A stretch of DNA of 48,652 bases from an uncultured Dehalococcoidales bacterium (lineage in GTDB: Bacteria; Chloroflexota; Dehalococcoidia; Dehalococcoidales; CAYFFA01): assembly GCA_964342375.1 (NCBI GenBank), contig CAYFFA010000001.1, positions 1 to 48,652 of the forward strand, written 5' to 3'. The number at the start of each line of letters is the position of its first letter. Positions within the stretch are counted from its first letter, which is position 1. The translations under genes and the position numbers were made by a program. Shown here one piece after another: positions 3,697 through 43,763 of this stretch. Below the pieces are notes generated by a model. The model did not search any database. It worked only from the letters and a program-made list of their open reading frames with translations, and was not told the DNA's origin.

Positions 3697-4347
3697 TCAA
3701 GACAAGATGCCATTTTCAAACCTGCCTCCCACTTCCTGCCACATCCGCTTTACGGTGTGATTTATCACCCCATAATTGAAACCACGGTGCTTGAGATATC
3801 CACCTAATCGGCGCTTAAAGCCTTGGTAGTCAGACAGGGGTAAACTACGGGCTTTACCCTGGGCTGCCCGGTAGGCGTTCTCGTCATCATTGACCGTATC
3901 AGCTACCCGGTCTATGATATCATCGGCTACACCCTTCTGCCTCAGCTCCAGCTTAGTTAACCGCTGACTGCGCGGGCTAAATGATTCCCGGTTAGCCTTC
4001 CAGAATTGAGCAAAAGCCGTATCATCCACTAACCCTTGCTCCCTTAGCCTAGCCATCACTGCATCTACACTGCTATCGTTGAAGCCCTGCCGCTGAAGAC
4101 GCTCCCTTACCTCAAGCTCGCTACGAGGTCGATAGCTGAGGTAACGGAGAGCGGCCCCAAGGCAACGGTGGAAGAAGTCAGACCGGTTCAGGTCTTCTGT
4201 CTGACTGGCAGATAGCTCCTGCCCCACACGCAGCCTTTCCTGCACCACCACTTCAGCTTCCAGACCGAAGGCGAACTCGCCATCTATAAATACATTCACC
4301 CGCTCGCTCCGCCCCCTACCGTCACGGATGGCAGTAATCTTCCCCAT
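3697..4347 (-). CDS. recX: Recombination regulator RecX
   Basis: 216 aa, immediately downstream of recA. It shows helical-repeat RecX-type sequence (YLSYRPRSELEVRERLQRQGF..., LELRQKGVADDII). Confidence 0.8.
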   Translation of the reverse strand: MGKITAIRDGRGRSERVNVFIDGEFAFGLEAEVVVQERLRVGQELSASQTEDLNRSDFFHRCLGAALRYLSYRPRSELEVRERLQRQGFNDSSVDAVMARLREQGLVDDTAFAQFWKANRESFSPRSQRLTKLELRQKGVADDIIDRVADTVNDDENAYRAAQGKARSLPLSDYQGFKRRLGGYLKHRGFNYGVINHTVKRMWQEVGGRFENGILS

Positions 4348-4375
4348 CTGCTTGATATACCTCCTTTTTTAAGCC

Positions 4376-4406
4376 AAAAAGGCTGAGGTATAAGCCTCAG
4401 CCTTTT
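4376..4406 (-). terminator. Rho-independent-type hairpin between recA and recX (bidirectional shape)
   Basis: AAAAA-GGCTGAGG-tataag-CCTCAGCC-TTTT. This is an 8-bp perfect stem (4381-4388 / 4395-4402) flanked by A and T runs. On the minus strand the hairpin is followed by TTTTT. Confidence 0.6.
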
Positions 4407-4468
4407 AAATCATTCTGCCTATTTAGCTATTCTGCTTAAAACGACATTAGTCGCTAGCTAGAGAGTTA

Positions 4469-5467
4469 TCAGGTATTATTGGCTGAGGCTCTAATCCGTT
4501 GCTCAATCTCTCCGGCAAGTTCAGGATTCTGCTTCAGGTATTGCTTGGCATTCTCCCTACCCTGCCCCAGGCGAATATCACCATAGGAGAAAAAGGCACC
4601 GGCTTTATTAACCAGCCCCAGCTCTACACCCAGGTCAATAAGATTACTCTCCTTACTTATCCCCTGGCCGAACATGATATCAAACTCAGCAGATCTGAAG
4701 GGAGCGGCAACCTTGTTTTTGACTACCCTGGCCCTGATTTGACTGCCTATTGACTCATTTCCCTGCTTAATTGTCTCGATACGTCTCAGGTCTATCCTAA
4801 CAGAACTATAGAATTTTAACGCCCTGCCACCTGGAGTTACCTCAGGGTTACCGAAGACAATGCCTACCTTCTCCCTCAGCTGGTTGATAAATACTACTGC
4901 TGTTCCCGACCTGCCGATAGCGGCAGCCAGCTTCCTCAGTGCCTGCGACATGAGACGGGCTTGTAAACCAACATGAACGCCCCCCATTTCGCCCTCGATT
5001 TCAGCTTGTGGTACTAGGGCGGCTACACTATCAATCGCTATTATCTCGACAGCCCCACTCCTGACCAATGCCTCGGTAATCTCCAGAGCTTGCTCACCGG
5101 TATCAGGTTGAGAGATGAGCAGGTCATCAATATTGACCCCACAACTGGTAGCGTAGGCAGGGTCTAGAGCATGCTCCACATCAATATAGGCAGCTGTGCC
5201 CCCTTTCTTTTGTGCTTCAGCAATAATATGCTGAGCCAGGGTGGTTTTCCCAGATGACTCAGGACCAAATATCTCCGTAATCCGCCCTCTGGGGATACCA
5301 CCTACACCCAGGGCCAAGTCTAATGCCAGCGAGCCGCTAGGAACAACCTCTACCACCGACGTTGTAGCAGCTTCTCCCAACTTCATAACTGAGCCTTTGC
5401 CAAACCGCTTTTCGATCTGACTGATAGCTAGTTCCAGTGCCTTGTCCTTCTCCGTGGTCATATTCAC
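4469..5467 (-). CDS. recA: Recombinase RecA
   Basis: 332 aa. It has the Walker A motif GPESSGKTT and the characteristic ALDPAYA, [17 protein letters not shown] and [17 protein letters not shown] blocks. Confidence 0.97.
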
Positions 5468-5500
5468 CTGAATCTTATCATAACATAATCATCCCATCAA

Positions 5501-5527
5501 AACAAGCAAATATTTTCATATCTTGTT
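5501..5527 (-). promoter_or_regulatory. Inverted repeat AACAAG-N15-CTTGTT in the recA upstream region (candidate operator)
   Basis: Read on the minus strand, 5501-5506 and 5522-5527 form AACAAGATATGAAAATATTTGCTTGTT. This overlaps a possible TTGTTT-17-TATGAT promoter about 35-60 nt upstream of the recA ATG. It is not a canonical GAAC-N4-GTTC LexA box. Confidence 0.25.
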
Positions 5528-5577
5528 ATCAACTCCATCATTTTTATCCGTCTTATGTAAAACCCAAATCGAGGTAT

Positions 5578-6567: not shown

Positions 6568-7314
6568 CTAAACCTGAAAGTCGGCCACCTGAGGTAGCTG
6601 TCGCTTATGAGCACAACCCGCTATCATAGATTCAATTTTCCCCCTTAGCTCACCGGAGGCTTCACCGGCAACCAGGTAGCGGTCGAGCTCCTCATAGCTG
6701 AACCCTAAATCGCCTTCATCTGTTTGGCCCGGCCACAAGCCAGCCGATGCAGGCTTATCAATAATAAGCTGGGGAATGCCCAGAAAGCCGGCTAGCTCTC
6801 TCACCTGTCCTTTGACCAGATTGCCTAGAGGTATGATATCTACCCCACCGTCCCCGTATTTGGTAAAGTACCCTATGGCAAGCTCACTACGGTTGCTCGT
6901 GCCAGCTACCATATAGCCGAGCTGATTGGCAAAGTAGTAAAGGGTTAGCATCCTCAACCTGGCTTTGAGATTAGCTTCAGCTATCCGGCTGGCTGCGGGG
7001 TCAATGCTCTTACCGGGCACCATCTTAAGCAAGATATCAAAAACAGGTTCGAGGACCACCATCTTGGTTGGAATAGAAAACTGGCCAGCCACCGCCTGAG
7101 CATGTTCCATATCCTCCCGGCTACTGTGGCACGGCATAAGCGCCCCGAGCATGCTTTGCGGAAAAGCACGGTGACACAACACCGCCAGCACCGAGGAGTC
7201 GACTCCGCCGCTCATGCCCACCATCACTCCTTTACACCCGCCAAACAAGACCTGATCTTTTATCCACGAGACCAGCTTACCCGCCAGTTGCTCCTGATGC
7301 ATAAAAGTCTCCAT
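6568..7314 (-). CDS. nadE: NH3-dependent NAD+ synthetase
   Basis: 248 aa. It has the PP-loop motif GMSGGVDSSV, then GTSNRSELAIGYFTKYGDGG and KPASAGLWPGQTDE. Confidence 0.9.
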   Translation of the reverse strand: METFMHQEQLAGKLVSWIKDQVLFGGCKGVMVGMSGGVDSSVLAVLCHRAFPQSMLGALMPCHSSREDMEHAQAVAGQFSIPTKMVVLEPVFDILLKMVPGKSIDPAASRIAEANLKARLRMLTLYYFANQLGYMVAGTSNRSELAIGYFTKYGDGGVDIIPLGNLVKGQVRELAGFLGIPQLIIDKPASAGLWPGQTDEGDLGFSYEELDRYLVAGEASGELRGKIESMIAGCAHKRQLPQVADFQV

Positions 7315-7376
7315 TGTAGCACAATGTTGTACGTAGTATACTACCTTATAGTCAACTGGTCAAAAGCAAAAAACCG

Positions 7377-8918
7377 ATGTTAGCCGCAGATATTATCCTC
7401 GAAAATGCCAATGTAATAACCATGGAGCCGGAGCAGCCCACCGCTGAGCTGGTAGCAATCAGGGGCAACCGGATTTTGCTGGTCGGTGGCGATGAAGATT
7501 TGAAGCAAGTTACGGGAGCAAAGAGCAGGATAATCGACTGCCATGGTAAAACGTTGGTACCCGGTTTCAACGATGCCCATTGCCATATCTTCTCTTTCGT
7601 AAGAAAACTGCTCAGTCTCGACTTGAGTCCGTCATCAGTCGGCTCCATTGATGACATAAAGGCAGCCATCCACCGTCGAGCCCAAGACACGCCACCGGGG
7701 GAGTGGCTCATCGGCACCGGTTATAACGAGTTCTATCTCGCCGAAAAGCGCTGTCCGAATCGCCGGGATTTAGATGATGTGGCACCTCGCCACCCGGTAG
7801 TCCTGGCTCACCGCTCCCTGCACGCCTGCGCCCTTAATAGCATGGCGCTTTCCCTGGCTGGTATCACCAGAGAGACCCCAGAACCGCCCGGCGCGCTCAT
7901 TGACCGGGACCACGCCACTGGAGAGCCAACCGGTATCCTGTTTGAGATGCTTAGCTACATCAGAGAAAAGGTTTTGCCCCCTTTATCTGAAGAAGCATTA
8001 ACTGAAGGCATAGCTTCGGCTGATAAGCACTACCTGTCCTGCGGCATTACCTCGTTACAGGAGGCTACCATCAGCAACGACCTTGGCCGGTGGCAGTCCT
8101 TTCATCGGTTTAAAGGCAAACTGAAAAGCCGTCTATCCATAATGTTTGGAGTTGAAGCCTTGAGCCGATTCCAAGCGGCAGGCTTAGCCTCCGGGTATGG
8201 TGATAGTCAGTTGCGCCTGGGCGGGGCGAAGATACTGGTGAGGGAAACCACCGGACAACTGGAGCCGTCACAGCCGGAATTAAACCGGCAGGCACTTGCT
8301 GCCCACATGGCTGGCTATCAGCTAGCCATCCATGCCATTGAGCCGAACACCGTGAAGGCAGCCATCACCGCCCTGGAACATGTCAACAGCCATTCCCCGC
8401 AGAATGGTCAACGACATCGCATAGAGCACTGCTCGGTGTGTCCTCCTCCTCTACTCGAGCGCCTGAGCAAGCTCCATGCAGTCGTCGTTACTCAACCCCC
8501 ATTTCTTTACTATAGCGGGGAAAGATATTTAGCCACTGTGCCGGTCGGTCACCTACCATGGCTATACCGGATTAAGTCCCTGGTTAACAGTGGCTTGATT
8601 GTGGCTGCCAGTTCCGATTCTCCGGTAGTCCCTGATAACCCTTTGGTTGGCATATATGCCGCCGTCACCAGAAAGACCGAATCAGGACGGCAGCTTCTAC
8701 CCGAGGAATGTATCTTAGCCAAACAGGCACTGGCTATGTACACCATAAATGCTGCTTATGCCTCCTTTGAAGAGGATATAAAAGGCTCGATTGCTCCGGG
8801 CAAACTGGCTGATATCGTAGTATTGAGCGATGACCCTGTTAACTCACCCCCGGAGCGGATAAAGGACATCTCGGTGGAGATGACAATTATCAACGGCGAG
8901 GTGGTCTGGGAATCTTGA
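7377..8918 (+). CDS. Amidohydrolase-3 family metal-dependent hydrolase (YtcJ-like)
   Basis: 513 aa. It has GKTLVPGFNDAHCHIF near the N-terminus, HAIE, the RHRIEH motif and SSDSPV near the C-terminus. Confidence 0.8.
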   Translation: MLAADIILENANVITMEPEQPTAELVAIRGNRILLVGGDEDLKQVTGAKSRIIDCHGKTLVPGFNDAHCHIFSFVRKLLSLDLSPSSVGSIDDIKAAIHRRAQDTPPGEWLIGTGYNEFYLAEKRCPNRRDLDDVAPRHPVVLAHRSLHACALNSMALSLAGITRETPEPPGALIDRDHATGEPTGILFEMLSYIREKVLPPLSEEALTEGIASADKHYLSCGITSLQEATISNDLGRWQSFHRFKGKLKSRLSIMFGVEALSRFQAAGLASGYGDSQLRLGGAKILVRETTGQLEPSQPELNRQALAAHMAGYQLAIHAIEPNTVKAAITALEHVNSHSPQNGQRHRIEHCSVCPPPLLERLSKLHAVVVTQPPFLYYSGERYLATVPVGHLPWLYRIKSLVNSGLIVAASSDSPVVPDNPLVGIYAAVTRKTESGRQLLPEECILAKQALAMYTINAAYASFEEDIKGSIAPGKLADIVVLSDDPVNSPPERIKDISVEMTIINGEVVWES

Positions 8919-10242: not shown

Positions 10243-10447
10243 ATCCCTCTTTATTATATCTACCTCATCCCCTTTATCCCCCTCTCCTTCAAAGGAGGGA
10301 GTGTGCGATTAGTTGATAATGGAGTTGATTGTAAAGGGCAAAGCTCATCTTAAACTCTCCTCTACTCCCCTTAACCTCACCTAAAAAATACCCCCAAAAG
10401 CCGGCCATGTGCTATAATTAGTCAAAAGTCGGACACAGAAAGATGCG

Positions 10448-13400
10448 ATGTTTACCCATCTCCACATTCACACCGAATATAGCTTACTTGATGGCATATG
10501 CCGCATCCCCAAGCTTATTGAACGAGCCAAAGAGCTAGGAATGGATAGCTTGGCGATAACCGACCACGGGGTCATGTATGGCGCCATCGAGTTCTATCTG
10601 GCAGCCAGGGAGGCCGGCATAAAGCCCATTATCGGCTGCGAAGTTTATGTTGCTCCAGATAGCCGCTTGAACCGAAGTGACGGGAATAAAGAGTACTATC
10701 ATCTCATTCTGCTGGCCAAGAACGGGACCGGCTACCGCAATCTAATCCAGCTCGCTACTCAAGCACAACTCGAGGGCTTCTACTACAAACCCAGAGTGGA
10801 CAAAGAGCTTCTACAGGAGTATCACCACGGTCTTATCGCCCTCTCCAGCTGCATGGGAGGTGAGATTCCCCGCCTCATCCGGGAAGGACGCCTCCAAGAG
10901 GCAAAGCAAGCTGCCCTGTGGCACAAGCAAACCTTTGATGATTTCTACCTGGAAATACAAAAGCACCCCATTCCCGAACTAGAGATGATAAACAAGGAAC
11001 TTGTATCTATGAGCGGTGAACTGGATATCCCGCTGGTAGCAACTAATGATGTCCACTATGTCAACCGGGAAGACGCCTCGACACATGATCTGCTACTGTG
11101 CATTGGAACCAACTCCTCTATCCATGATGATAAGAGACTGAAGATGGCAGGCGACTTTTTCTACCTCAAGAGACCTGAGGAGATGGCAGAGCTATTCAAG
11201 GATATTCCTCAGGCTGTGGAGAACACTGAGCGCATTGCCGAAATGTGCAACCTCAACCTGGATTTCGGACGTCTCCACCTCCCCGAGATAGAGCTGCCTG
11301 AAGGAAAAACGGCTGACCAGTTTCTGGCTAACCTCTGCCATGAGGATCTCCACAAATATTATCCCCAGCCCACACCAGAAATAGAAAACCGGCTCGCCTA
11401 CGAGCTAGAAGTAATAAAGCAGACCCAGTTTGCCAATTACTTCCTCGTCGTCTGGGATTTCATCTCCTTCGCCAAAAAGCAGGGCATCCTGTTTGGCGTT
11501 AGAGGTAGTGCTGCCGCAAGCATCGTCCTCTACTGCCTTGGTATCACACAGGTTGACCCCATTAAAAATAAGCTGGTCTTTGAACGTTTTCTCAATATGG
11601 AGCGTCGGGAGATGCCAGATATAGACCTGGATTTTGAGGGTGACCGCCGTGATGAGGTAATTGCCTATGTATCGCAGAAATACGGGCGGGAGCATGTTGC
11701 TCAGATAATCACCTTCGGCACACTGGGTGCCAGAGCATCCCTCCGAGATGTTGGCCGTGCGCTGGATATGCCTTATAGTGATGTCGACCGCGTTGCCAGA
11801 CTTATCCCCTTCTCTCCAAATATTACCCTGGACAAAGCCCTGGAGGAGAATCGTGAACTGCAAAACATCTACCAGGAGGATACCATAGTTCGCAATCTGG
11901 TCAACTCAGCCAAGAAGGTAGAGGGTATTGCCCGCCATGCCAGCACACATGCTGCCGGCGTAGTCATATCTAAAGAGCCCCTCACCAGATACGTCCCCCT
12001 TCAACGGGCAAGCAAGAGTAACGATGAAGCCACAGTTATGACTCAGTTCACCATGGAAGATATTGCTCATATTGGCCTGCTAAAGATGGATTTCCTTGGT
12101 CTGGCTAACCTGACTATTCTGGGCAAGGCACAGGAGATTATTCATCAGAACCGCAATGTTGATGTTGACCTGCGCCATATTCCCATGGACGATACCAAGA
12201 CCTTTGACCTGCTGTCCTCAGGAGAAACGGCTGGCGTATTTCAGTTGGAGGGAGCTGGCATGCGCCGCTATATCAAAGAGCTCGAACCGACCACCTTCAA
12301 CGATATCGCTGCTATGGTCGCCCTGTACCGCCCCGGGCCCATGGAGCATATACCCGCATTTATCAAAGCCAAGCACGGCGTTGAGCCTATCAGCTACCCC
12401 CACCCCACCTTAGCCAGCATCCTTGAGGAAACTTACGGGGTGATTGTATATCAGGACCAGGTGCTCTTTATCGTGCAAGCCCTCGCTGGCTACAGCTTGG
12501 GACAGGCTGATATCTTCCGCAAGGCGATGGGCAAGAAGATTCCCGAGGTTATGAAGAAAGAGAGACGTAACTTCACCGCCGGAGCCAAGAGGAACGGATT
12601 CTCAGCCGAGATAGCCGGTCAGGTTTTTGACCTCATTGAGCCATTTGCCGGCTATGCCTTCAACAAGGCTCACAGTGTCAGCTACGCACTCATTGCCTAT
12701 CAAACCGCCTATCTCAAAGCAAACTACCCAATAGAATACATGACCGCTCTCCTGATCACCAATGCTGATCAGCCGGAGAAAGTAGCTAATGCTATTGCTG
12801 AATGCCGACGTCTGGATATAACCGTGTTACCACCCGACATAAACCGAAGCCAAGCCAGCTTTTCTATAGAAAAGGATGGCGGTGGCACCTCAGTCATCAG
12901 CTTCGGATTGACCACCATCAAGAATGTGGGATTGGGAGCTATAGAACCTGTTATTGCCGGGCGAGATAAGGAGGGCAAGTTCAAATCAATTGGAGACCTG
13001 TGCCGCCGCGCCGACCTGAGCAGCGTCAATAAGCGGGTAATGGAAAGCCTGATTAAGGCGGGGGCTCTGGACTCCATGGGCAGCCGTGGAAGTCTACTCC
13101 AAAGTGCTGACCGCATCCTGTCCCTGTCCCAGCGAGAGCACCGGCTTCGGGAAACAGGACAATCCACTATGTTTGACCTGTGGGGTGAGGCAATGCCTTC
13201 ACCTCTGCCCAGCCTTGATCTTGAGGCGGCTGACATCCCTACTAAGGAGAAGCTAGCCTGGGAGAAGGATCTGCTGGGGGTATACCTTTCCGAGCATCCC
13301 TTCAGCTCCGTGGCCGGCAAGGCAGGCTCAGAGACTACCCTGTGCGGTCAGATTGATGCTGAACTGGCAGGACAAACCATTGTAGTCGCCGGGATGGTAG

Positions 13401-13960
13401 CTTCAGCTCGCCAACTGTCCACCAAAGACAGCCGCCCCTTTATCAGGGCCGTTCTGGAAGACCTAGATGGTCAGATTGAGGTTATGGTCTGGCCCAAGGT
13501 CTATGCTGAAACCGGAGACCTGTGGCAGGAAGGGAATCTGCTGCTGGTTGAGGGTAAGGTACGGGTAAGAGATGACCAGGTGCAACTGAACTGCGATAGT
13601 GCGCGCCTCTACCAACCTGAGGCAACCCAGGGTGAAGAGGCAGTCACCACTCAGCCTGCTGAAGAGCCATTAGCCGCCGAGGAAACCACAGCCGACACCA
13701 CACCCGCTGAAAGTCGTCGACTGGTAATAAGCATCTTCCAGACCGATAATCAAGCCAGTGACGTCGCCTACTTGCATAAATTGATCGATACCCTTAGGGA
13801 GTTCTCCGGTCAGGATGAGGTAAGCCTTCGTGTAACCAATGAGGGGAATATTATGAACCTCAAGCTGACCAACATACGTATCGACTACTGCCCTGAACTC
13901 CACCAGCAACTGGTAGAACTGGTGGGAGAGGATGGGTTGAGAGTAGAGACGCTCGGGTAA
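10448..13960 (+). CDS. dnaE: DNA polymerase III alpha subunit (replicative DnaE1)
   Basis: 1170 aa. It has a PHP N-terminus (FTHLHIHTEYSLLDG), the polymerase core (PDIDLDF, HAAGVVIS), an OB fold and a C-terminal domain. Confidence 0.97.
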   Translation: MFTHLHIHTEYSLLDGICRIPKLIERAKELGMDSLAITDHGVMYGAIEFYLAAREAGIKPIIGCEVYVAPDSRLNRSDGNKEYYHLILLAKNGTGYRNLIQLATQAQLEGFYYKPRVDKELLQEYHHGLIALSSCMGGEIPRLIREGRLQEAKQAALWHKQTFDDFYLEIQKHPIPELEMINKELVSMSGELDIPLVATNDVHYVNREDASTHDLLLCIGTNSSIHDDKRLKMAGDFFYLKRPEEMAELFKDIPQAVENTERIAEMCNLNLDFGRLHLPEIELPEGKTADQFLANLCHEDLHKYYPQPTPEIENRLAYELEVIKQTQFANYFLVVWDFISFAKKQGILFGVRGSAAASIVLYCLGITQVDPIKNKLVFERFLNMERREMPDIDLDFEGDRRDEVIAYVSQKYGREHVAQIITFGTLGARASLRDVGRALDMPYSDVDRVARLIPFSPNITLDKALEENRELQNIYQEDTIVRNLVNSAKKVEGIARHASTHAAGVVISKEPLTRYVPLQRASKSNDEATVMTQFTMEDIAHIGLLKMDFLGLANLTILGKAQEIIHQNRNVDVDLRHIPMDDTKTFDLLSSGETAGVFQLEGAGMRRYIKELEPTTFNDIAAMVALYRPGPMEHIPAFIKAKHGVEPISYPHPTLASILEETYGVIVYQDQVLFIVQALAGYSLGQADIFRKAMGKKIPEVMKKERRNFTAGAKRNGFSAEIAGQVFDLIEPFAGYAFNKAHSVSYALIAYQTAYLKANYPIEYMTALLITNADQPEKVANAIAECRRLDITVLPPDINRSQASFSIEKDGGGTSVISFGLTTIKNVGLGAIEPVIAGRDKEGKFKSIGDLCRRADLSSVNKRVMESLIKAGALDSMGSRGSLLQSADRILSLSQREHRLRETGQSTMFDLWGEAMPSPLPSLDLEAADIPTKEKLAWEKDLLGVYLSEHPFSSVAGKAGSETTLCGQIDAELAGQTIVVAGMVASARQLSTKDSRPFIRAVLEDLDGQIEVMVWPKVYAETGDLWQEGNLLLVEGKVRVRDDQVQLNCDSARLYQPEATQGEEAVTTQPAEEPLAAEETTADTTPAESRRLVISIFQTDNQASDVAYLHKLIDTLREFSGQDEVSLRVTNEGNIMNLKLTNIRIDYCPELHQQLVELVGEDGLRVETLG

Positions 13961-14109
13961 TATTTTAAGAGTACAGAGATGTTAATCGACTTCATTGATG
14001 AGGTGGAGTCTAACACATACGCATCGCAACCTTATTCCCAGATATTGGCCTCAGTGATACTCCTTTCACTGAAGGAGAATTAAAGGTGGGGTTTTTAAGA
14101 GGGGGGGTA

Positions 14110-14493
14110 ATGAAAAGGTTTTTGATACTGGTTACGGCGGCAATAGTAGCTACCAGTCTGGTGACTGGGTGTACGGGAGGAGTTAAGCCCTCTACTGAGT
14201 CGGAGCAAGCCATAAACACCGGCATTAATCAAGAGTTTATTATTGAGCCCGGCTCTAATCCTTCCACCGGCTATAGCTGACAAGAAAGCTACGATGAGAC
14301 CATGCTCGAGCTGGTGGAAAATACATATAAATCGGGTGAGGAGGCAAAACAGGGTGTGGTTGGCGCTGGCGGTACTGACTATTTTCGATTTAAAGCGTTA
14401 AAGACGGTTGAAACTGAGATAATAATGGTCTATAAGCGACCATGGGAAAAGGAGAGCCTAGAGCAAATTGTTTTCACAGTCGATATAGAGTGA
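14110..14493 (+). pseudogene. Peptidase inhibitor I42 (chagasin/ICP family) lipoprotein interrupted by one in-frame TGA
   Basis: A lipoprotein signal is present (MKRFLILVTAAIVATSLVTGC). Track ORFs 14086..14280 and 14302..14493 are in the same frame. Joined, they read ...EPGSNPSTGYS[TGA]QESYDETMLELVE...VVGAGGTDYFRFKA...YKRPWE. This is the I42 pattern NPTTGYxW ... GxGG..xFxF ... RPW, with the TGA (14278-14280) exactly at the conserved Trp. Confidence 0.75.
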
Positions 14494-14497
14494 CACT

Positions 14498-15013
14498 TTA
14501 CCTCGTTCTGGCTGGAGCTTCCAGAGAGAGAAGGTGCCTCTTCACAGCCAGCCCGCCGGCGAATCCGCAGAGCTTGCCATCGCTGGCAACTACACGGTGG
14601 CAGGGAATGATACCCGGCAAAGGGTTTCTTCCCAGAGCCTGCCCCACTGCCCGCGCCACCCCCGGTCTGCCTATCTGCTCCGCCACCCATGAATAGCTCC
14701 TAGTCTCTCCGTAAGGGATGAGCCTAGTTTTACTCCATACACCAATCTGAAAGGGGGTAGCCCCTGAGAGGTCAACATCGTCAGGGAAGGTTACTTTGTC
14801 ACCGCTATAATAATTCTTGAGGCGTTCCATCAGATTCTCAAACAGCCGTGTAGACCAGATGGCATGGTTTGCTTTATCACCCAACAGTTGACGCGCCTCC
14901 TGAAGTGAGCGCTGAGGTGGAGTGGTCAACAGCAGACCGCTTGTCGATCCCAACACTCCTACCCAGCCGGCAGAGGTATCGAAAGCGGTGTAATTTATAG
15001 CCTCATCTGCCAT
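14498..15013 (-). CDS. ogt: Methylated-DNA--protein-cysteine methyltransferase
   Basis: It has the active-site motif IPCHRVV and GGLAVKRHLLSLE. I prefer the ATG at 15013 (MADEAINYTAFDTSAGWVGV...) over the track start at 15088. Confidence 0.85.
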   Translation of the reverse strand: MADEAINYTAFDTSAGWVGVLGSTSGLLLTTPPQRSLQEARQLLGDKANHAIWSTRLFENLMERLKNYYSGDKVTFPDDVDLSGATPFQIGVWSKTRLIPYGETRSYSWVAEQIGRPGVARAVGQALGRNPLPGIIPCHRVVASDGKLCGFAGGLAVKRHLLSLEAPARTR

Positions 15014-15137
15014 ATATATGCTACCTATTCTCTGCCTCAACCGGAAGGGAGATAATTCAGTATATCGTCTAGTGATTATAACGCACAAGCGGGTTAAAAG
15101 ATAGCGGTAAAATATCTACCTGATAGATTCGTACTTC

Positions 15138-19117: not shown

Positions 19118-19996
19118 TTATTCTTTAGAAACGTCTCTTTCTCTGAACGGAATTTGAATCGGCAAGTCCTTAGTATTCAATTTAAAGGTTTTCATCAAGT
19201 CAATCGCATTGTGCGGTGCGTATCCCTGCCAGTGGTTATTAAAAAAGACAAAGGTCATATTAGTCTGTTCGTCAGTGACCTTCACTCTGTTGGCAAGCTC
19301 TTCTATTTCGTCCGGTGAATATAGATACTTATACCGTGTTTCACTATCACCTTTCCACCACGTCTCTGCGTTCCGTCCATGAAAGCGGAAGTAAGCCATG
19401 TCTGATGTCAACGGCAAGTCCTTTGCGAGCGAGGATTCAAATTTTGGTTCATCAATCTGCACCCAAGACACATTATTTTCCTTTAGCAACCGGGCGATGT
19501 TTTCATCGTTGCTCCAACTGCGGTGCCTTAATTCAATAGCCAACCTGTATTGACCAAATATATCCATGACCATGCTTAATATCTGTTGCCCATAGCCATC
19601 ATTCTCAAAACTTGGTGGAAATTGAGCGAGTAGAACACCCAGTTTTTCGTATTTCAGCAACGGCTCAATACTATAATTGAAAAGGTCAACATCTTTTTGG
19701 GATATTACGGCTTCTCTTCCAGTCGCTTCTTTATACATCTCGGGATGAGTAAATTTCTGCCACAACTTCACAGTAAAGAGAAAGTCTTTCGGGACTCTAC
19801 GCACCCAGTTATAAACATACCCGGGATTTGGCAGTCTATAGAATGAACTATTAATTTCAACCGTATTAAAAAACTGGCTATAATATTCAAGCTCATTTAC
19901 CTTACCTCTGGGGTAGAAATATTCGGTCCACGTGCCTTCACCTTTGGGGTAAGACCATCCTGATGTGCCGATATAAAGTCTAGCTAAGTTGGTCAT
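19118..19996 (-). CDS. DUF72 (YecE/UPF0759) family protein
   Basis: 292 aa. It has LYIGTSGWSYPKGEG, YYSQFFNTVEINSSFYRLP, the FTVKL...F..HP pattern, RHRSW and YFRFHGRN, all typical of DUF72. Confidence 0.8.
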   Translation of the reverse strand: MTNLARLYIGTSGWSYPKGEGTWTEYFYPRGKVNELEYYSQFFNTVEINSSFYRLPNPGYVYNWVRRVPKDFLFTVKLWQKFTHPEMYKEATGREAVISQKDVDLFNYSIEPLLKYEKLGVLLAQFPPSFENDGYGQQILSMVMDIFGQYRLAIELRHRSWSNDENIARLLKENNVSWVQIDEPKFESSLAKDLPLTSDMAYFRFHGRNAETWWKGDSETRYKYLYSPDEIEELANRVKVTDEQTNMTFVFFNNHWQGYAPHNAIDLMKTFKLNTKDLPIQIPFRERDVSKE

Positions 19997-20089
19997 TTAC
20001 TATATTCCCCTTAACCATATGATAGCAAAACGCTGAATCCATCACCAGACACTTATTCATAAGCTATGGCGCCTGGTGACAAAATACCC

Positions 20090-20119
20090 TTGACAGTAGC
20101 ACATATGTTCTGATATATT
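20090..20119 (+). promoter_or_regulatory. Promoter with embedded LexA-type (Cheo-box-like) palindrome upstream of the 82-aa ORF and dnaE2
   Basis: TTGACA (20090-20095), an 18-nt spacer, then TATATT (20114-20119). The spacer contains AGCACATATGTTCT (20098-20111), one mismatch from the perfect palindrome AGAAC-ATAT-GTTCT. This fits the CGAAC-N4-GTTCG class of LexA operators used by Gram-positives and reported for Dehalococcoides. Confidence 0.5.
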
Positions 20120-20150
20120 GTAGCTCCCCCCTATCTTCGGAGTTAAGATA

Positions 20151-20399
20151 ATGTCAAAGCTTATTGGTGAACCTGTCAAAGTGCATAGAAATGGAGCCTC
20201 AGCTTTAACTGCCTTCATATGGAGAAGGCGTCTCTATAGAGTGGTTGAAGTTCTTAGCTGGTGGCGGGAACCATCAAAGTGGTGGAATGGGGAAGGAATA
20301 CGACTCTTTGTTCGTGTCAATGCCAGAAATTCCAGCATAGGAACTTACGAACTCTATAAACTTGGAGAGGAGTGGTTTCTCTATAGATACTTCGACTAG
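20151..20399 (+). CDS. Small Trp-rich protein, possible stand-alone ImuB-C-terminal/DUF6504-like accessory factor of DnaE2
   Basis: 82 aa, ending 10 nt before the dnaE2 start. The sequence is ...LYRVVEVLSWWREPSKWWNGEGIRLFVRVNARNSSIGTYELYKLGEEWFLYRYFD. From memory, the WW...R.F.RV...G...L......WFL motif resembles the extreme C-terminus of ImuB-type proteins. This was not verified. Confidence 0.55.
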   Translation: MSKLIGEPVKVHRNGASALTAFIWRRRLYRVVEVLSWWREPSKWWNGEGIRLFVRVNARNSSIGTYELYKLGEEWFLYRYFD

Positions 20400-20408
20400 G
20401 GTTCAATA

Positions 20409-23400
20409 ATGAGCTTTATTCACCTTCATGTCCATTCTCAATACAGCTTTCTTGATGGAGCCGCTTCCTTAGATAGACTCTTGGAAAAGGCAAAGGCGTT
20501 AGATATGCCTGCCCTGGCCCTCACCGACCATAACAGGTTAACAGGTGCTATCAGGTTCTATGAGAAAGCCAGAGCTATCGGTATAAAACCAATCATAGGT
20601 TCTGAAATTAATTTAGAGACTGGCCACCATCTCACGCTTCTGTGCAAGGACAATAAAGGCTACTCCAATCTATGTCGGTTACTGACTGAGGCCCATCTAT
20701 CCAATAAGGGCAGAAAGCCCGCTGTAACCAAGGAGATGCTACAAAAGCTCAAGGCTGGGCTAATCGTTTTATCTGGATGCACTAAAGGTGAGATACCCAC
20801 ATTAATTGACATGGGCGAAACCGAAACAGCCAGAGAAATAGCGAATTCTTACAGAGAAGTCTATGGGGGCAATTTTTTTGTTGAGCTCATCCGTCATCCA
20901 TCTAAGGATGGAATGCTCGGTAGCTACAGACTTGCTACCTTTGCCAGAGAGGAGGGTCTACCTATAGTGGCCACCAACAATGTTCACTGCACAGAAATGG
21001 AAGAGTATGAAATCAAGGAATTGCTTAATGCCATAGGTCGAAATACCCCCGTCTCCCAGTTAGAAGACCATCGAACTGTTGAGCAATACCTTAAATCACA
21101 GAAGGAGATGGCTAAGCTCTTCAAGGACTTCCCTGAGGCTATAGACGCGACAGTAGAGATTGCTTCCAGATGTAATTTGGGGTTAGAGTTGGGCAAACCC
21201 CGCTTCTCCAAGTTTGATACTCCCAATGGTAATACTGACTACGGCTACCTATCGAAGTTGGCTTTGGCAGGAGCTTTAAATAAGTATGGCTCAATAACGC
21301 CAAATATTAAGAATCGCCTGGAGAACGAGCTTATAACAATCAAGAGCCTTGGTTTTTGCAGTTATTTTCTGGTAGTTTGGGATATAGTTCAATGGGCGAG
21401 GAGACGCGGCATAAAATGCCAGGCAAGAGGGAGTGCAGTAGATAGCCTGGTGGTCTATGCACTGGATATTAGCACCGTTGACCCTATTGAGTATGACCTT
21501 CTCTTTGAACGCTTCCTGCATCCCTTGAGAAGTGACCCTCCCGATATCGATTTGGATATTGACCGGAGACGCAGGGATGAAGTGCGAGACTACATATATC
21601 AAAAATATGGTGCCGAAAATGTTGCCTGTGTGGGAACCATCAACACCTACATGGCTAGGGGGGCTATTCGAGACACCGGCAAAGCTCTACAAATACCACA
21701 GGAGATAATTCAAGAGGCCTGTAAAAGCATCCACTACTTATCTACTTCAAAACTCCTCGAATACGCTGATTCTCTGCCTGAATTAAAGAAACGCACCATT
21801 TACAGCAGACCTGAGCTTGCTAAACTGTTTGAACTATGTGTTGCCATAGATGGGTTCCCCAAATATCTATCTGTTCATCTTGGGGGAATGCTTATTGGGG
21901 ACGGCAGGCTTGCTGACTTAGTGCCTCTTGAAAGGTCTAGTGGTGGAGATATTATCAGCCAGTATGATAAGAATGATATTGAGAAGCTCGGTATTGTCAA
22001 AATGGATTTACTGGCACTCCCAACCCTTACCGTTATCGAAGATACGCTTACTAACATTAAGAAGAGTCGTGGCGTTGATGTTGATTTAGATAAAATACCA
22101 AGAGATGACCCTGAGGCCTTTGCTATGCTACGTGATGGGAAGACAATCGGCATTTTCCAACTGGAATCACCAGCGCAGAGAGAAATGGCAGGGAGGCTAC
22201 TACCAAACCGTTTTGAAGACATTATCGTTTCTATTTCCTTGGTCCGGCCAGGACCTCTCAAGTCTAATATGGACAAGGTCTATCTTCCCCGGAGACACGG
22301 TAACGAACAGGTTACCTATCTTCATCCCAAACTTAAAAATGCCCTTGGAGAGACCTTGGGGGTTATACTGTACCAGGAGCAGGTATTAAAGGTTGCCCAC
22401 GACCTAGCTGGAATGAGTTATGCTGAAGCAGCCGGTTTCCGCCGGGCCATGACACATGACCGCACCGAAGAAGATATGGAGAAAATGCGGGACTCCTTTA
22501 TTTCCAGTACTGTTAGAAATGGTGTAAGCAGGGGTATCGCAAAGGAGATATTTGAGCAACTGGCTGCCTTTGCTGCTTACGGATTCTGCAAAGCCCATGC
22601 TGCCGTCTACGCTGTCATTGCTTACCAAACCCTCTGGCTGAAGTGCCATTATCCGGCTGAATTTTTTGCTGCAGTCTTGTCCAATCAACCGGTGGGATAC
22701 TATCCACCACGTGTCCTAGTCGACGATGCGAAAAGGTTTGGAGTTAAAGTGCTACCTATTGATATTAACTGTTCCTTTGGCGATTATATCGTAGAAGATG
22801 ATGCTATAAGGATTAGTCTCAGGCAGTTAAAAGGAATGTCGGAAGAAGCACTGGAATCTATATTATCGAAAAGAGCTAAGAATGAGTTTAATTCGTTAAG
22901 GGACTTTGTCCTGAGAACGAATGTAAGTCTGCTCACCACTGAGAACCTCATCAAGGTTGGCGCTTTTGATTCGTTTGGCAATAGAGCGGAACTGCTTTTG
23001 CAGCTTCATAAACTAGGAAACCTCAAGCACAAAATAGGCAAGGGGGCAAGACCTCTGTTCGATGATTCTAAGCCAAAGTTGGAACCAACAGATAGGACTC
23101 ATTACCATGATAACAAAGCAAGGGTGCTTATTGAGAGAGAACTGTTGTCTCTAAGTTTATCAGCACATCCCTTAGATTTCTACACTTTTGATAACGGGAT
23201 AACAAAGATGAAAGACCTGTCTTCCATAGCTACAGGTAAGACTATTAAGATTGCCGGCTCTGTAATTCGTTATCAAACCCCACCTACCAGGAATGGCAAC
23301 AGAGTAATCTACGTGATAATGGAGGATGGGACTGGCATAGCTGATATAACCGTGTTTGGTGACGTCCAAGAGAAGTGTGGAGAGGTCTTATTTCGAGAAG

Positions 23401-23516
23401 GCTGGTTGATGGTGAAAGGGAAAGTGCAGAGAAGAGGGCCAAAATCAACCACAATCATTGCTGAGGATTTGTCTCCCCTGAACAAAAAATCATACTTTGC
23501 AAATAGCAGTTGTTAA
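20409..23516 (+). CDS. dnaE2: Error-prone DNA polymerase, DnaE2/ImuC type
   Basis: 1035 aa. It has a PHP N-terminus (FIHLHVHSQYSFLDGAASL, ALALTDHN), the pol III alpha core (PPDIDLDI, LSVHLGGM) and an OB fold near the C-terminus, but no tau-binding tail. It is the second DnaE paralog in the window and visibly lower in GC than dnaE. Confidence 0.85.
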   Translation: MSFIHLHVHSQYSFLDGAASLDRLLEKAKALDMPALALTDHNRLTGAIRFYEKARAIGIKPIIGSEINLETGHHLTLLCKDNKGYSNLCRLLTEAHLSNKGRKPAVTKEMLQKLKAGLIVLSGCTKGEIPTLIDMGETETAREIANSYREVYGGNFFVELIRHPSKDGMLGSYRLATFAREEGLPIVATNNVHCTEMEEYEIKELLNAIGRNTPVSQLEDHRTVEQYLKSQKEMAKLFKDFPEAIDATVEIASRCNLGLELGKPRFSKFDTPNGNTDYGYLSKLALAGALNKYGSITPNIKNRLENELITIKSLGFCSYFLVVWDIVQWARRRGIKCQARGSAVDSLVVYALDISTVDPIEYDLLFERFLHPLRSDPPDIDLDIDRRRRDEVRDYIYQKYGAENVACVGTINTYMARGAIRDTGKALQIPQEIIQEACKSIHYLSTSKLLEYADSLPELKKRTIYSRPELAKLFELCVAIDGFPKYLSVHLGGMLIGDGRLADLVPLERSSGGDIISQYDKNDIEKLGIVKMDLLALPTLTVIEDTLTNIKKSRGVDVDLDKIPRDDPEAFAMLRDGKTIGIFQLESPAQREMAGRLLPNRFEDIIVSISLVRPGPLKSNMDKVYLPRRHGNEQVTYLHPKLKNALGETLGVILYQEQVLKVAHDLAGMSYAEAAGFRRAMTHDRTEEDMEKMRDSFISSTVRNGVSRGIAKEIFEQLAAFAAYGFCKAHAAVYAVIAYQTLWLKCHYPAEFFAAVLSNQPVGYYPPRVLVDDAKRFGVKVLPIDINCSFGDYIVEDDAIRISLRQLKGMSEEALESILSKRAKNEFNSLRDFVLRTNVSLLTTENLIKVGAFDSFGNRAELLLQLHKLGNLKHKIGKGARPLFDDSKPKLEPTDRTHYHDNKARVLIERELLSLSLSAHPLDFYTFDNGITKMKDLSSIATGKTIKIAGSVIRYQTPPTRNGNRVIYVIMEDGTGIADITVFGDVQEKCGEVLFREGWLMVKGKVQRRGPKSTTIIAEDLSPLNKKSYFANSSC

Positions 23517-23546
23517 TAGAAGGCTCAGTATGTAGAATAAACTTAG

Positions 23547-23819
23547 TTTGATTCATTAAGAGTAACAGATAATAATTTTGTTGAGGTTCATCACTTGATC
23601 CCCAAGGCATTCCAAGATGATTTTAATTATAGCCTTGATGTCCCTGCTAATATAATAGCCGTATGTCCTAACTGTCATCGACGGTTACATCATACTAAGA
23701 TGAGCCAAATAGCGGAAGTTGTCCAGCAAATATATAGTGATAGACCAACTGCATTACACCAGGCAGGTATATTTGTACCGGTAGATAAGTTATTTAATTA
23801 TTATAAATTAGATAGTTAG
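23547..23819 (+). pseudogene. C-terminal fragment of an HNH endonuclease
   Basis: The frame is open from 23547 and reads ...NNFVEVHHLIPKAF...NIIAVCPNCHRRLHH. That is the His-Asn-His core, but the upstream Cys pair and N-terminal domain are missing. There is no credible start, so the TTG at 23595 in the track is arbitrary. Confidence 0.6.
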
Positions 23820-23934
23820 ATATTTTATTGAGCTGAAGTCTGGTTTCACGAGTATTGTAATAGCAAATAATATTTCCCTAAATGGGTTCCTACTACATTG
23901 GAAAAAGTATCTCTTGGCCTGTATAATCTATGTT

Positions 23935-24264
23935 ATGAAAGATGATTTAAAACAAATTCTTGAATTTGAGCACCAACGAGACTGGAAACAGTTTCATACA
24001 CCGAAGAATCTTGCCATATCCCTAGTGTTGGAAGCCGGGGAAGCCCTCGAAATATTTCAATGGTCTAAGGATGGTGATCTCCCCGCTGATAGACAAGTCG
24101 AGTTAGGAGAAGAACTGGCGGATATTTATTACTATTTACTTCTATTGGCGCATGAAACAGGCCTGGATATTCAGGGAGAGTTCCAAAAGAAAATGAAAAT
24201 AAACGCTGCCAAATATCCAGTAGATAAATCTAAAGGTAACTCACGCAAATACGATCGACTTTAA
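23935..24264 (+). CDS. MazG-like nucleotide pyrophosphohydrolase (DCTPP1/YpjD-like)
   Basis: It reads MKDDLKQILEFEHQRDWKQFHTPKNLAISLVLEAGEALEIFQW...LGEELADIYYYLLLLA...NAAKYP. A TTGGAA-18-TATAAT promoter ends 7 nt before the ATG, so the mRNA may be leaderless. Confidence 0.8.
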   Translation: MKDDLKQILEFEHQRDWKQFHTPKNLAISLVLEAGEALEIFQWSKDGDLPADRQVELGEELADIYYYLLLLAHETGLDIQGEFQKKMKINAAKYPVDKSKGNSRKYDRL

Positions 24265-42947: not shown

Positions 42948-43763
42948 CTAGTACTTTATTTTAGCTTCAGTGTCTATGCATTTCACAAGGGTGTCTACTA
43001 TATCTATTGATTCCACCAAATATTTATTGGTGATAGATTTGTAGGTTCCCACCCTTAACGTGTTGTTCTTGACCATTTTCTAGAATTTCTGATTTACCAT
43101 TCCTTTATTATGTATGTGAATGTTCCTAGTTGCTAGAATCTCTGTTACGCTTTCAACCGATACTCCTGAATTATTCAGATTAATCTTGAATTTGCCCTCA
43201 AAATATTTGACAACGTTTGAGAATGAGTCATATTGTAGGTCTTCCACTTCTCTCTCTGCAAAATAGCTTATTATTTGCTTTCGCTCGCCTTGAGCAAGTA
43301 TTTCTTCGACGGTCAATTGTTTACCAGATTTAAGGGCATCAGGACGAGTTAACAATATTTCCCGAACGATATCAACAAGGTATCCTTCAAAGATTGACAC
43401 TAAATAGATTAAGCCAAGTATGCGGACAAGTTCGATAAATTGCCGAAACTTCTTCATTTCCATAGGCACAAATACATCTATATCGGTTAAGTCATCCAGT
43501 TTTTCGCCAAGTTCACCGGTTAGTTTCTCATCAGCTTTGGACAATCTAGATTTTCCATATTTATCAAGGAGGTCACCCATTCGCATCTCAAGTTGGGGTA
43601 ACTCTTTCCTAGCAGCTCGGACTTGTTTCTATAAAATTTTTACTTGCTTACCATACCACTCCTCAGTTGTACCGAGAAAATAGGTAAGCTTCCAGAAGCT
43701 GGAATCAAATGTTCGGGAACTCGCAGTATCTGTCTTACGCTTAAGTTGTTTCTTCTTCGCCAT
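42948..43763 (-). pseudogene. HEPN-domain (Rx4H) Abi/toxin-like protein, RiboL-PSP-HEPN-like, interrupted by two in-frame TAG codons
   Basis: The frame opens at ATG 43763, inside the last 7 codons of mfd and one base out of the mfd frame. It reads MAKKKQLKRK...WYGKQVKIL[TAG 43629-43631]KQVRAARKELPQLEMRMGDLL...IFEGYLVDIVREILL...VTEILATRNIHIHNKGMVNQKF[TAG 43080-43082]KMVKNNTLRVG...DTEAKIKY[TAG 42948-42950]. RNIHIH fits the HEPN Rx4-6H catalytic motif. The block is markedly AT-rich compared with mfd. Confidence 0.6.

Follow-up and report, generated by a model that had tools for sequence, protein, structure and literature searches.

A conserved ImuB-C and DnaE gene pair behind a LexA-box-class operator, without a linked Y-family gene, in uncultured Dehalococcoidia

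We analyzed a stretch of 48,652 nucleotides (nt) of contig CAYFFA010000001.1 (assembly GCA_964342375.1; hereafter the window), which belongs to an uncultured Dehalococcoidales bacterium of the Chloroflexota, and focused on two adjacent genes in which a small open reading frame (ORF) precedes a DnaE-family polymerase. The small ORF (20151-20399, plus strand) encodes an all-beta protein of 82 amino acids (aa) that matches Pfam family PF20114 and represents a stand-alone ImuB-C (DUF6504) protein. The polymerase gene (20409-23516, plus strand) starts 9 nt after the stop codon of the small ORF and encodes 1035 aa with the Pfam domains PHP, Pol3 core, fingers, helix-hairpin-helix and OB. Both genes lie behind a sigma-70-type promoter (20090-20119, plus strand) composed of TTGACA at 20090-20095, an 18-nt spacer and TATATT at 20114-20119, at the coordinates described in an initial annotation of this locus. 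The promoter matches the consensus at 11 of 12 positions, carries a TG before the -10 hexamer and is the top promoter-like site within 19900-23950. An operator, TAGCACATATGTTCTG (20097-20112, no strand assigned), which belongs to the LexA-box class GAAC-N4-GTTC, fills the spacer, and the sequence AGCACATATGTTCT at 20098-20111 lies between the two hexamers. Direct reading of the sequence also shows a Shine-Dalgarno element, GGAG (20139-20142, plus strand), 8 nt ahead of the ATG of the small ORF; relatives keep GGAG or GGGG at this position. Across these relatives the two genes form a conserved unit with a conserved 16-bp palindrome of the LexA-box class in the promoter spacer, and no ImuB or iPolY gene is linked to them.

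On profile comparisons, the 82-aa protein is a DUF6504/ImuB-C domain protein. The initial annotation had pointed to a likeness to the C-terminus of ImuB and to DUF6504, and searches with hidden Markov models (HMMs) gave significant matches to both. The protein matched PF20114 over residues 3-69 with 30.4 bits (gathering score 24.2, E 4.8e-7). A profile of 54 sequences of the small-protein family (A1) was then scored against ImuB-C and PolY reference sequences taken from the supplement of PMC12926913. It matched the stand-alone ImuB-C of Kyrpidia tusciae (ADG05749) with 92 bits and the ImuB-C proteins of Deinococcus deserti, Alicyclobacillus and Janibacter with 67, 60 and 53 bits, respectively, as well as residues 258-331 of the 334-residue, "very short" fused ImuB1 of Thermogutta with 33 bits (E 2.7e-6 at Z = 1e6). 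Residues W44, W45, W75 and the C-terminal D82 are invariant in the 54 diverse family members. A search of 5.8 billion proteins returned 344 close homologs, nearly all of them exactly 82 aa long with PF20114, some of which NCBI names "DUF6504 family protein [Chloroflexota bacterium]". An exhaustive phmmer search of 1.84 billion cluster representatives gave 184 matches, nearly all of 75-100 aa; the sole long match, a repetitive 539-aa protein, was spurious. The AlphaFold2 model, a prediction for a protein that has no solved structure, contains six beta strands and has a mean confidence score (pLDDT) of 87.6. A Foldseek search of the PDB with this model found no significant neighbor (best E 0.73), and a sequence search of the PDB found neither a match to the small protein nor a structure of ImuB-C, ImuB or DnaE2, the matches obtained (Nup358) being noise. 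The lack of a PDB neighbor agrees with the published description of ImuB-C as a beta-barrel without close solved relatives (PMC12926913).

To define the conserved unit, we scanned one genome per GTDB species with a closer alignment of 13 sequences. The scan yielded 79 loci, virtually all in metagenome-assembled genomes (MAGs) of Dehalococcoidia, and seven loci added from metagenome look-ups brought the total to 86; three of the scanned pair loci lie on complete MAG chromosomes (CP070819.1, CP070645.1 and CP070842.1). The small ORF had been expected to recur beside the polymerase, and it does: among 79 loci with 400 nt or more of downstream sequence, 73 have a DnaE homolog that starts 4-23 nt after the stop codon of the small ORF, most often at the 9-nt distance seen in the window. 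In distinct species these homologs are 57-77% identical to the second DnaE of the window. The pair was found in at least 40 different gene neighborhoods. The genes downstream of it are almost all different and those upstream come from many families, which indicates that the pair itself is the conserved unit. In the window both ORFs share one reading frame, with TAG and 9 nt between them (junction 20397-20408), and the same 9-nt gap is present in 31 of 73 loci. A fusion of the two proteins by stop-codon read-through was considered and rejected, because gaps of 8, 10, 14, 17, 19 and 20 nt in relatives break the frame.

Two observations would suit a decaying, non-functional remnant of an iPolY-ImuB-C-DnaE2 triad. 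The module has no iPolY gene, and by simple ORF call the polymerase ORF is only 849 aa long in L021 (CP070645.1) and 738 aa in L049 (CP070842.1), both complete-chromosome MAGs (~10259-12808 in the loci). These short ORFs could stem from a frameshift, a pseudogene or an assembly error. In 51 full-length relatives, by contrast, both ORFs are intact at 57-77% identity, conservation per alignment column averages 0.79, and the catalytic motifs are kept, as are the promoter, the operator and the Shine-Dalgarno element, so that decay appears extremely improbable. At six loci the small ORF stands without the polymerase, and five of them keep the promoter. The ImuB-C genes that have the SOS promoter and no polymerase behind it are those of L045, L048, L050, L060 and L078; in L045 (6239-8584) a UvrD/PcrA-type helicase follows the ImuB-C gene, and the MAG CSMAG_843 holds a lone copy (L048) in addition to a full pair (L052). 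Loci of this kind suggest that ImuB-C may have partners besides DnaE2.

We next turn to the control region, for which 78 unique upstream regions were available, 76 of them non-identical and aligned on GTTC. Their consensus is CTTGACA-n-TAG-n-ACAT-n-TGTTCTA-n-TATAAT. Both hexamers are conserved, and the spacer, at 1.4-2.0 bits per position, equals them in information content. All 76 regions contain GTTCT without change, and only one half-site position varies (A 36, C 21, T 18, G 1). The window has C there, and its operator matches the family consensus TAGAACAwwTGTTCTA with one mismatch. The GAAC-N4-GTTC core is perfect in 34 of the 78 regions and has one mismatch, always at the same position, in another 42, which makes the operator conserved in 76 of 78. 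The frequent GCAC and GTAC forms of the left half-site would be expected to bind LexA less tightly and hence to be induced at another threshold. All 32 perfect copies of AGAAC-N4-GTTCT in the 1.10 Mb made up by the window and the 86 loci fall in this promoter, where chance would place about one. Within the window alone, 9 sites match GAAC-N4-GTTC with no more than one mismatch, fewer than the 13.3 that shuffled sequences would give, and none of them is perfect; the significance of the operator therefore comes from its conservation in relatives, the window by itself being no better than chance.

The LexA protein of Dehalococcoides reportedly binds a box of the Gram-positive type. In Bacillus, Mycobacterium and bacteria of the Gram-positive type, the LexA motif is GAAC-N4-GTTC (PMC3323433). 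We scanned metagenomes of the Joint Genome Institute with the promoter-plus-operator pattern (L092-L171) and classified the first downstream ORFs, whose lineages are not necessarily the same as that of the window. Eight of these genes encode iPolY, five encode ImuB-C and five are lexA genes (LexA_DNA_bind plus Peptidase_S24); short RecA-like (ImuA-like) genes, FtsK-like ATPase genes and genes for 97-aa LysM proteins were also found, and we take the last to resemble the SOS division inhibitor YneA. Dehalococcoidales triads of iPolY, ImuB-C and DnaE2X (L087, L088 and L090, all three at ~7870-8000, and L100, L124, L125, L145 and L147) share the same TTGACA / AGAAC-N4-GTTCT / TATAAT arrangement, including the GTAC variant of the left half-site. 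The scan also recovered, recurrently, an uncharacterized 137-aa protein with a LuxR/GerE-type helix-turn-helix and two proteins of 165 and 191 aa that have no Pfam match. Together these genes provide a candidate SOS gene list for bacteria with Gram-positive-type LexA boxes.

The conserved operator, and the same architecture in front of lexA genes, sustain the earlier suggestion that the palindrome is a LexA box with one mismatch, and LexA very probably controls the operon. A regulator other than the housekeeping LexA might instead bind the palindrome, which would leave the operon outside the SOS regulon. The window contains no lexA gene, its recA has no box, and 42 of the 78 operators, that of the window included, depart from GAAC at one position. 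Dedicated LexA paralogues moreover exist in the clade, as indicated by L053 (5240-9420), where a true lexA gene (LexA_DNA_bind plus Peptidase_S24) is inserted immediately before the small ORF; upstream of this lexA, another perfect palindrome, TTACACTTGTAA-TATA-TTACAAGTGTAA, stands in place of the usual operator. Judging by these features, the L053 protein seems to be a dedicated paralogue of LexA that has a specificity of its own. The family consensus is nonetheless an exact AGAAC-N4-GTTCT box of the Cheo type, and an identical promoter-operator precedes bona fide lexA (LexA_DNA_bind plus S24) and YneA-like LysM genes in metagenomes. We therefore regard control by another regulator as quite unlikely.

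A hairpin in the 5' untranslated region that would pair with the Shine-Dalgarno element was seen by eye. It is unsupported in the clade of the window (0 pairs, no consensus structure), and only weakly supported, with no compensatory changes, in the more distant clade whose small ORF starts with GTG. In that GTG-start clade (L054-L083) the 5' end of the leader (for example GCGCA or CTGCAC) seems complementary to the bases immediately before the GTG (TGCGC or GTGCAG), with apparent co-variation noted by eye; RNAalifold on an automatic alignment failed to reproduce the pairing.

The initial annotation was right that the window has two DnaE-family polymerases. The first (10448-13960, plus strand, 1170 aa) lies outside the operon and is a bona fide replicative DnaE1, with 1424 bits on NCBIfam model NF005298 (cut-off 1260). 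The second differs from it in that it ends at residue 1035, 11 aa after an OB fold at 947-1024, and thus has no C-terminal, tau-binding domain (CTD); DnaE1 of the window continues for ~110 further residues after its OB fold and has this domain. The CTD is possessed by "not a single DnaE2" (PMC3919608). The catalytic aspartate motifs PPDIDLDID (PDIDLD) and KMDLLAL (KMDLL) of the second DnaE are kept in the 51 full-length relatives, and the His/Asp metal-binding motifs of the PHP domain are conserved across the same set. The sequence ARPLF (residues ~880-884) sits where DnaE1 has its clamp motif QSTMF; the equivalent reads xPLF[ED]D in close relatives.

The class of this polymerase is less simple than the error-prone DnaE2/ImuC that had been proposed. 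DnaE2 proteins are divided into groups A, B and X (PMC12926913, NAR 2026, February 2026), and the second DnaE does not fit the DnaE2A/ImuC type: it reached 851 bits on the NCBIfam error-prone model NF004225, below the cut-off of 939, and 943 bits on the DnaE1 model NF004226, below the cut-off of 1002. Its identity is 37% to the DnaE1 of the window (616 bits) and 34-38% to DnaE2X proteins from Dehalococcoidales triads (560-573 bits at 34-35%); it stands about as far from DnaE1 as from published DnaE2X. The best non-self matches of its N-terminal 400 aa were the DnaE2X proteins of Kyrpidia (42% identity) and Alicyclobacillus (39%), while identity to DnaE2A was 30-35%. Identity to DnaE2B was 24-29%, with 80-126 bits as compared with 308 bits for DnaE2X and DnaE1, and by these values, obtained with the references of PMC12926913, the protein does not belong to the DnaE2B group. 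In a neighbor-joining tree of the same 400 aa, built with a single DnaE1 and truncated references, it was placed with the DnaE1 of the window, beside the DnaE2X of Kyrpidia and Alicyclobacillus. We also calculated, for N-terminal 400-aa fragments, the difference between the error-prone score and the best DnaE1 score. This difference was -70 bits for the second DnaE, -313 bits for the DnaE1 of the window, -13 to +18 bits for published DnaE2X references, and +197 and +281 bits for DnaE2A references. By this measure the second DnaE behaves like the "DnaE2X" grade, leaning slightly further towards DnaE1. Overall, these comparisons suggest a C-terminally truncated DnaE paralogue of the DnaE2 functional type that is predicted to be catalytically competent and is closest to the "DnaE2X" grade.

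The same values raise the possibility of a paralogue derived from DnaE1 that copies DNA accurately and is not mutagenic, for instance in damage-inducible gap filling or as a back-up for replication; ImuB-C would then be a recruitment or regulatory subunit and not part of a mutasome. It is marginally nearer to its own DnaE1 than to the Dehalococcoidales DnaE2X, its DnaE1-model scores exceed the error-prone score, its PHP motifs are conserved, and truncated DnaE1 forms that end after the OB domain have been described (PMC3919608). We consider this origin and role unlikely, since the protein lacks the CTD, as does every DnaE2, and is coupled to ImuB-C, which so far has been seen only in translesion-synthesis or mutasome contexts. 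Furthermore, the operator and the DUF72 neighbor described below are common to true DnaE2X triads, and the published DnaE2X references are equally intermediate in their HMM profile.

To find a possible Y-family partner, we searched six-frame translations of the window and of the 86 loci (+/-10 kb) with five published iPolY/PolY queries, a small HMM and an HMM of 124 iPolY sequences. No Y-family or ImuB-like protein was detected in this material, the best match being no better than E 2; the positive controls reached 575-615 bits, and the search also picked up its RecA control. The 48.6-kb window contains no imuA, imuB or Y-family gene, and neither imuA nor full-length imuB occurs within +/-10 kb at the 86 loci, which extends to the relatives the absence of adjacent imuA and imuB genes noted initially. 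The same iPolY search showed that Dehalococcoidales MAGs commonly carry triads of iPolY, a 94-aa ImuB-C and DnaE2. The ImuB-C of the triads is of a different subtype from that of the window, with an N-terminal extension and a QSY end.

These triads are relevant to the question of whether the pair is self-sufficient. It is conceivable that the mutasome is split, that is, that the pair needs a Y-family scaffold (iPolY or an active PolY bearing clamp-binding and RecA-NT motifs) and RecA encoded elsewhere, in which case the module would not be minimal. Every published DnaE2X system has iPolY and RecA, including that of Dehalogenimonas, a member of the same class, and triads with the same operator are common in Dehalococcoidales MAGs. 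In the survey of PMC12926913, one or more Y-family genes accompany DnaE2 in every Chloroflexi genome that has it, and a DnaE2-ImuB-C pair on its own occurs in none of them. A recA gene is present in the window, and the polymerase's own clamp motif is degenerate. On the other hand, the scaffold gene lies in the same operon in all other lineages, and here it was found within 10 kb at none of the 73 pair loci. The iPolY-linked ImuB-C is of another subtype and its polymerase is only 34-38% identical to that of the window, and the actinobacterial DnaE2B-ImuB-C pairs are a precedent for a pair without a scaffold. Weighing these points, we view a split mutasome as a possible but somewhat doubtful arrangement.

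The gene on the other side of the promoter encodes a DUF72 protein with a TIM barrel fold (19118-19996, minus strand; PF01904, E 5.8e-60). It had been described as convergent, but its start lies at 19996 and it is divergent, head-to-head, from the small ORF, so that a 154-bp control region is common to the DUF72 gene and the pair. Nor is it a mere upstream or boundary gene, since it recurs beside the module and is probably part of a damage island. A divergent DUF72 gene lies within 500 nt of the module in 20 related loci, somewhat further off in L023 and L025, and is parted from the module only by lexA in L053; overall, it is found divergently upstream of the pair in about one third of the relatives (among the DUF72-bearing loci are L008, L014-L016, L026, L031-L035, L039-L042, L046, L047, L049 and L072). 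The triad locus L088 likewise has a divergent DUF72 ortholog (6779-7633), 64% identical to the copy in the window, beside iPolY-ImuB-C-DnaE2. DUF72 is thus a loosely linked, recurrent neighbor of the module. In several relatives the region between DUF72 and the module is only ~100 nt long, from which we infer that the DUF72 promoter must overlap the operator. DUF72 genes are enriched near polB2 mutasome operons, and their TIM barrel is related to UV-damage endonuclease (UVDE; PMC11791011). The DUF72 protein may therefore be an SOS-co-regulated repair enzyme, and its recurrent divergent position provides a second, independent genomic link of this uncharacterized, UVDE-like family to mutasome operons.

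In the simplest reading, the module is related to the iPolY-ImuB-C-DnaE2X operons of other Dehalococcoidia but has no iPolY. As to its identity and regulation, we put the probability that it is an SOS-type operon of ImuB-C and a DnaE2-like polymerase at about 70%; whether the pair works without any Y-family scaffold we regard as an even question. In undamaged cells, LexA bound to the operator between the -35 and -10 hexamers would block RNA polymerase, and would probably block the divergent DUF72 gene too. DNA damage would lead to RecA-stimulated cleavage of LexA and free the promoter. ImuB-C would then bind the PHP domain of the polymerase, by analogy with AlphaFold models of ImuB-C-DnaE2 (PMC12926913), and the heterodimer would synthesize DNA at stalled forks or gaps in a damage-tolerant and probably mutagenic manner, perhaps with access to the sliding clamp through the degenerate ARPLF motif.

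Several points weigh against this picture. LexA binding, damage induction, complex formation and mutagenesis are all predictions. The placement of the polymerase in DnaE2 is weak and open to question, given its slightly higher scores on DnaE1 models and its position below both curated cut-offs, and because its PHP motifs look intact, the enzyme could be capable of proofreading and would not have to be error-prone. Its clamp-motif equivalent has no usual Gln and is lost in distant relatives. A Y-family partner may be encoded elsewhere in the genome. The operator of the window carries a mismatch, and there is no GAAC-N4-GTTC match between recA and the next gene (window 5468-5577). Both recA and recX have no box of this kind upstream, unlike the ImuB-C operon, and recA may accordingly lie outside the LexA regulon in this lineage.

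A stronger version of the proposal supposes that these Dehalococcoidia have neither a Y-family scaffold nor ImuA for this polymerase, having lost iPolY from a DnaE2X triad. The heterodimer of ImuB-C and DnaE, under joint control with a UVDE-like DUF72 enzyme from a single bidirectional, LexA-controlled region, would in that case be a complete SOS lesion-bypass machine. We offer this only tentatively. If it is true, such a machine has arisen independently of the actinobacterial DnaE2B pairs, and ImuB-C, rather than the Y-family body of ImuB, is the indispensable cofactor of DnaE2.

The history of the module was examined through its composition. The initial annotation had noted that the block is richer in AT than its flanks and had taken this to suggest horizontal acquisition. 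The first part is correct for the window, where the guanine-plus-cytosine (GC) content of the pair is 44.6% as compared with 50.8% in distant flanks, a difference of 6 points. The second part does not follow: in 33 of 42 relatives the pair is richer in GC than its flanks, by 4.6 points on average and by up to 14, and AT-richness was rejected as a sign of recent transfer because the sign of the deviation differs among relatives. This pattern suggests that the history of the module has been partly independent of the host genomes. Searches of viral contigs and mobilizable plasmids did not find the module on either; the plasmid search yielded only an orphan DUF6504 on a Thermaerobacter plasmid and a match in a chromosome-sized Nonomuraea record, and these searches thus give no sign of a phage or plasmid vehicle.

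Other features of the window concern the surroundings of the module. DNA-maintenance genes are dense (3697-5467, 10448-15088 and 43741-47226) and comprise recX, recA (4469-5467, minus strand; Pfam RecA, E 9.6e-133), dnaE1, an Ogt-type methyltransferase gene and mfd; they come on top of the block of DUF72, ImuB-C and DnaE2. In the region 3' of the polymerase (window 23517-24264), a 400-nt spacer is the most AT-rich stretch of the window, with 38% GC, and contains a 74-aa ORF with a sub-threshold HNH match (20.5 bits, as compared with a threshold of 21.4). It is followed by a gene for a MazG-like nucleotide pyrophosphohydrolase (23914-24264), which relatives do not conserve.

Finally, we compared the module with known systems. 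The initial annotation had regarded a stand-alone ImuB-C beside DnaE2 as a new, stripped-down configuration, but stand-alone ImuB-C proteins were noted by Aravind et al. in 2013 and analyzed by Timinskas and Venclovas in 2019 (PMC6511836), and DnaE2-ImuB-C pairs have been published as well (PMC12926913). The configuration is known; none of the surveys consulted lists it in Chloroflexota with a polymerase of this lineage. The classical (lexA)-imuA-imuB-dnaE2 cassettes of Pseudomonas, Caulobacter and Mycobacterium resemble the module in that an accessory C-family polymerase is combined with an ImuB C-terminal domain under LexA-box control, which, like damage inducibility, is predicted for the window, and in one relative (L053) lexA heads the operon as it does in lexA2-imuA-imuB-dnaE2 cassettes. 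Unlike these cassettes, the module has no ImuA and no Y-family body of ImuB, hence neither the ImuB clamp motif nor the RecA-NT motif, and its polymerase is not DnaE2A (30-35% N-terminal identity). The lexA-imuB-C-polY operons of the Geobacter sulfurreducens type (PMC6511836) share with it a stand-alone ImuB-C in an operon under SOS control (predicted here); in the window, however, the partner of ImuB-C is a C-family polymerase and there is no Y-family gene.

In composition the module matches the DnaE2B-ImuB-C systems of Arthrobacter alpinus and Cryobacterium arcticum, which likewise consist only of a DnaE2-type polymerase and a stand-alone ImuB-C, have been modelled as heterodimers by their authors and are said to occur only in Actinobacteria (PMC12926913). 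The DnaE2B polymerases are of a different lineage and longer (1146-1180 aa), with 24-29% N-terminal identity to the protein of the window. Their ImuB-C is encoded after the polymerase, is itself longer (90-111 aa) and matches the family of the window weakly or non-significantly (E 0.019 and 2.9e-5). With this locus, the two-component DnaE2-ImuB-C design reaches a second phylum and is joined to another polymerase lineage. The practical value of this finding is limited by the lack of cultured organisms and by the existence of actinobacterial pairs that lend themselves more readily to study. The presence of triad and pair forms in one class under one SOS promoter-operator constitutes a natural experiment on the contribution of the Y-family scaffold.

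The systems of DnaE2X, iPolY, ImuB-C and RecA, which include those of Kyrpidia tusciae, Alicyclobacillus, Sphaerobacter and Dehalogenimonas lykanthroporepellens, the last from the same class as the window organism (Timinskas and Venclovas 2019; PMC12926913), provide the remaining comparison. The module has their gene order, in which ImuB-C is followed by a DnaE of ~1020-1045 aa that lacks the CTD, an ImuB-C of the Kyrpidia subtype (92 bits to the family profile) and a polymerase with a similarly intermediate HMM profile. RecA is available in both cases, although for the window this refers only to the presence of the recA gene at 4469-5467. With the Dehalococcoidales triads in particular, the pair has the promoter-operator in common, and a DUF72 neighbor as in L088. 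It departs from these systems in two respects: no inactive Y-family gene is present in the operon or within +/-10 kb at any of the 73 pair loci, and its polymerase shares no more than 34-38% identity with DnaE2X from the Dehalococcoidales triads. Thus, the module is analogous in composition to the actinobacterial pairs and related to the DnaE2X systems by partner subtype, gene order and regulation, and within the family of ImuB-C/DnaE2 modules it is best regarded as a second member, one without iPolY.

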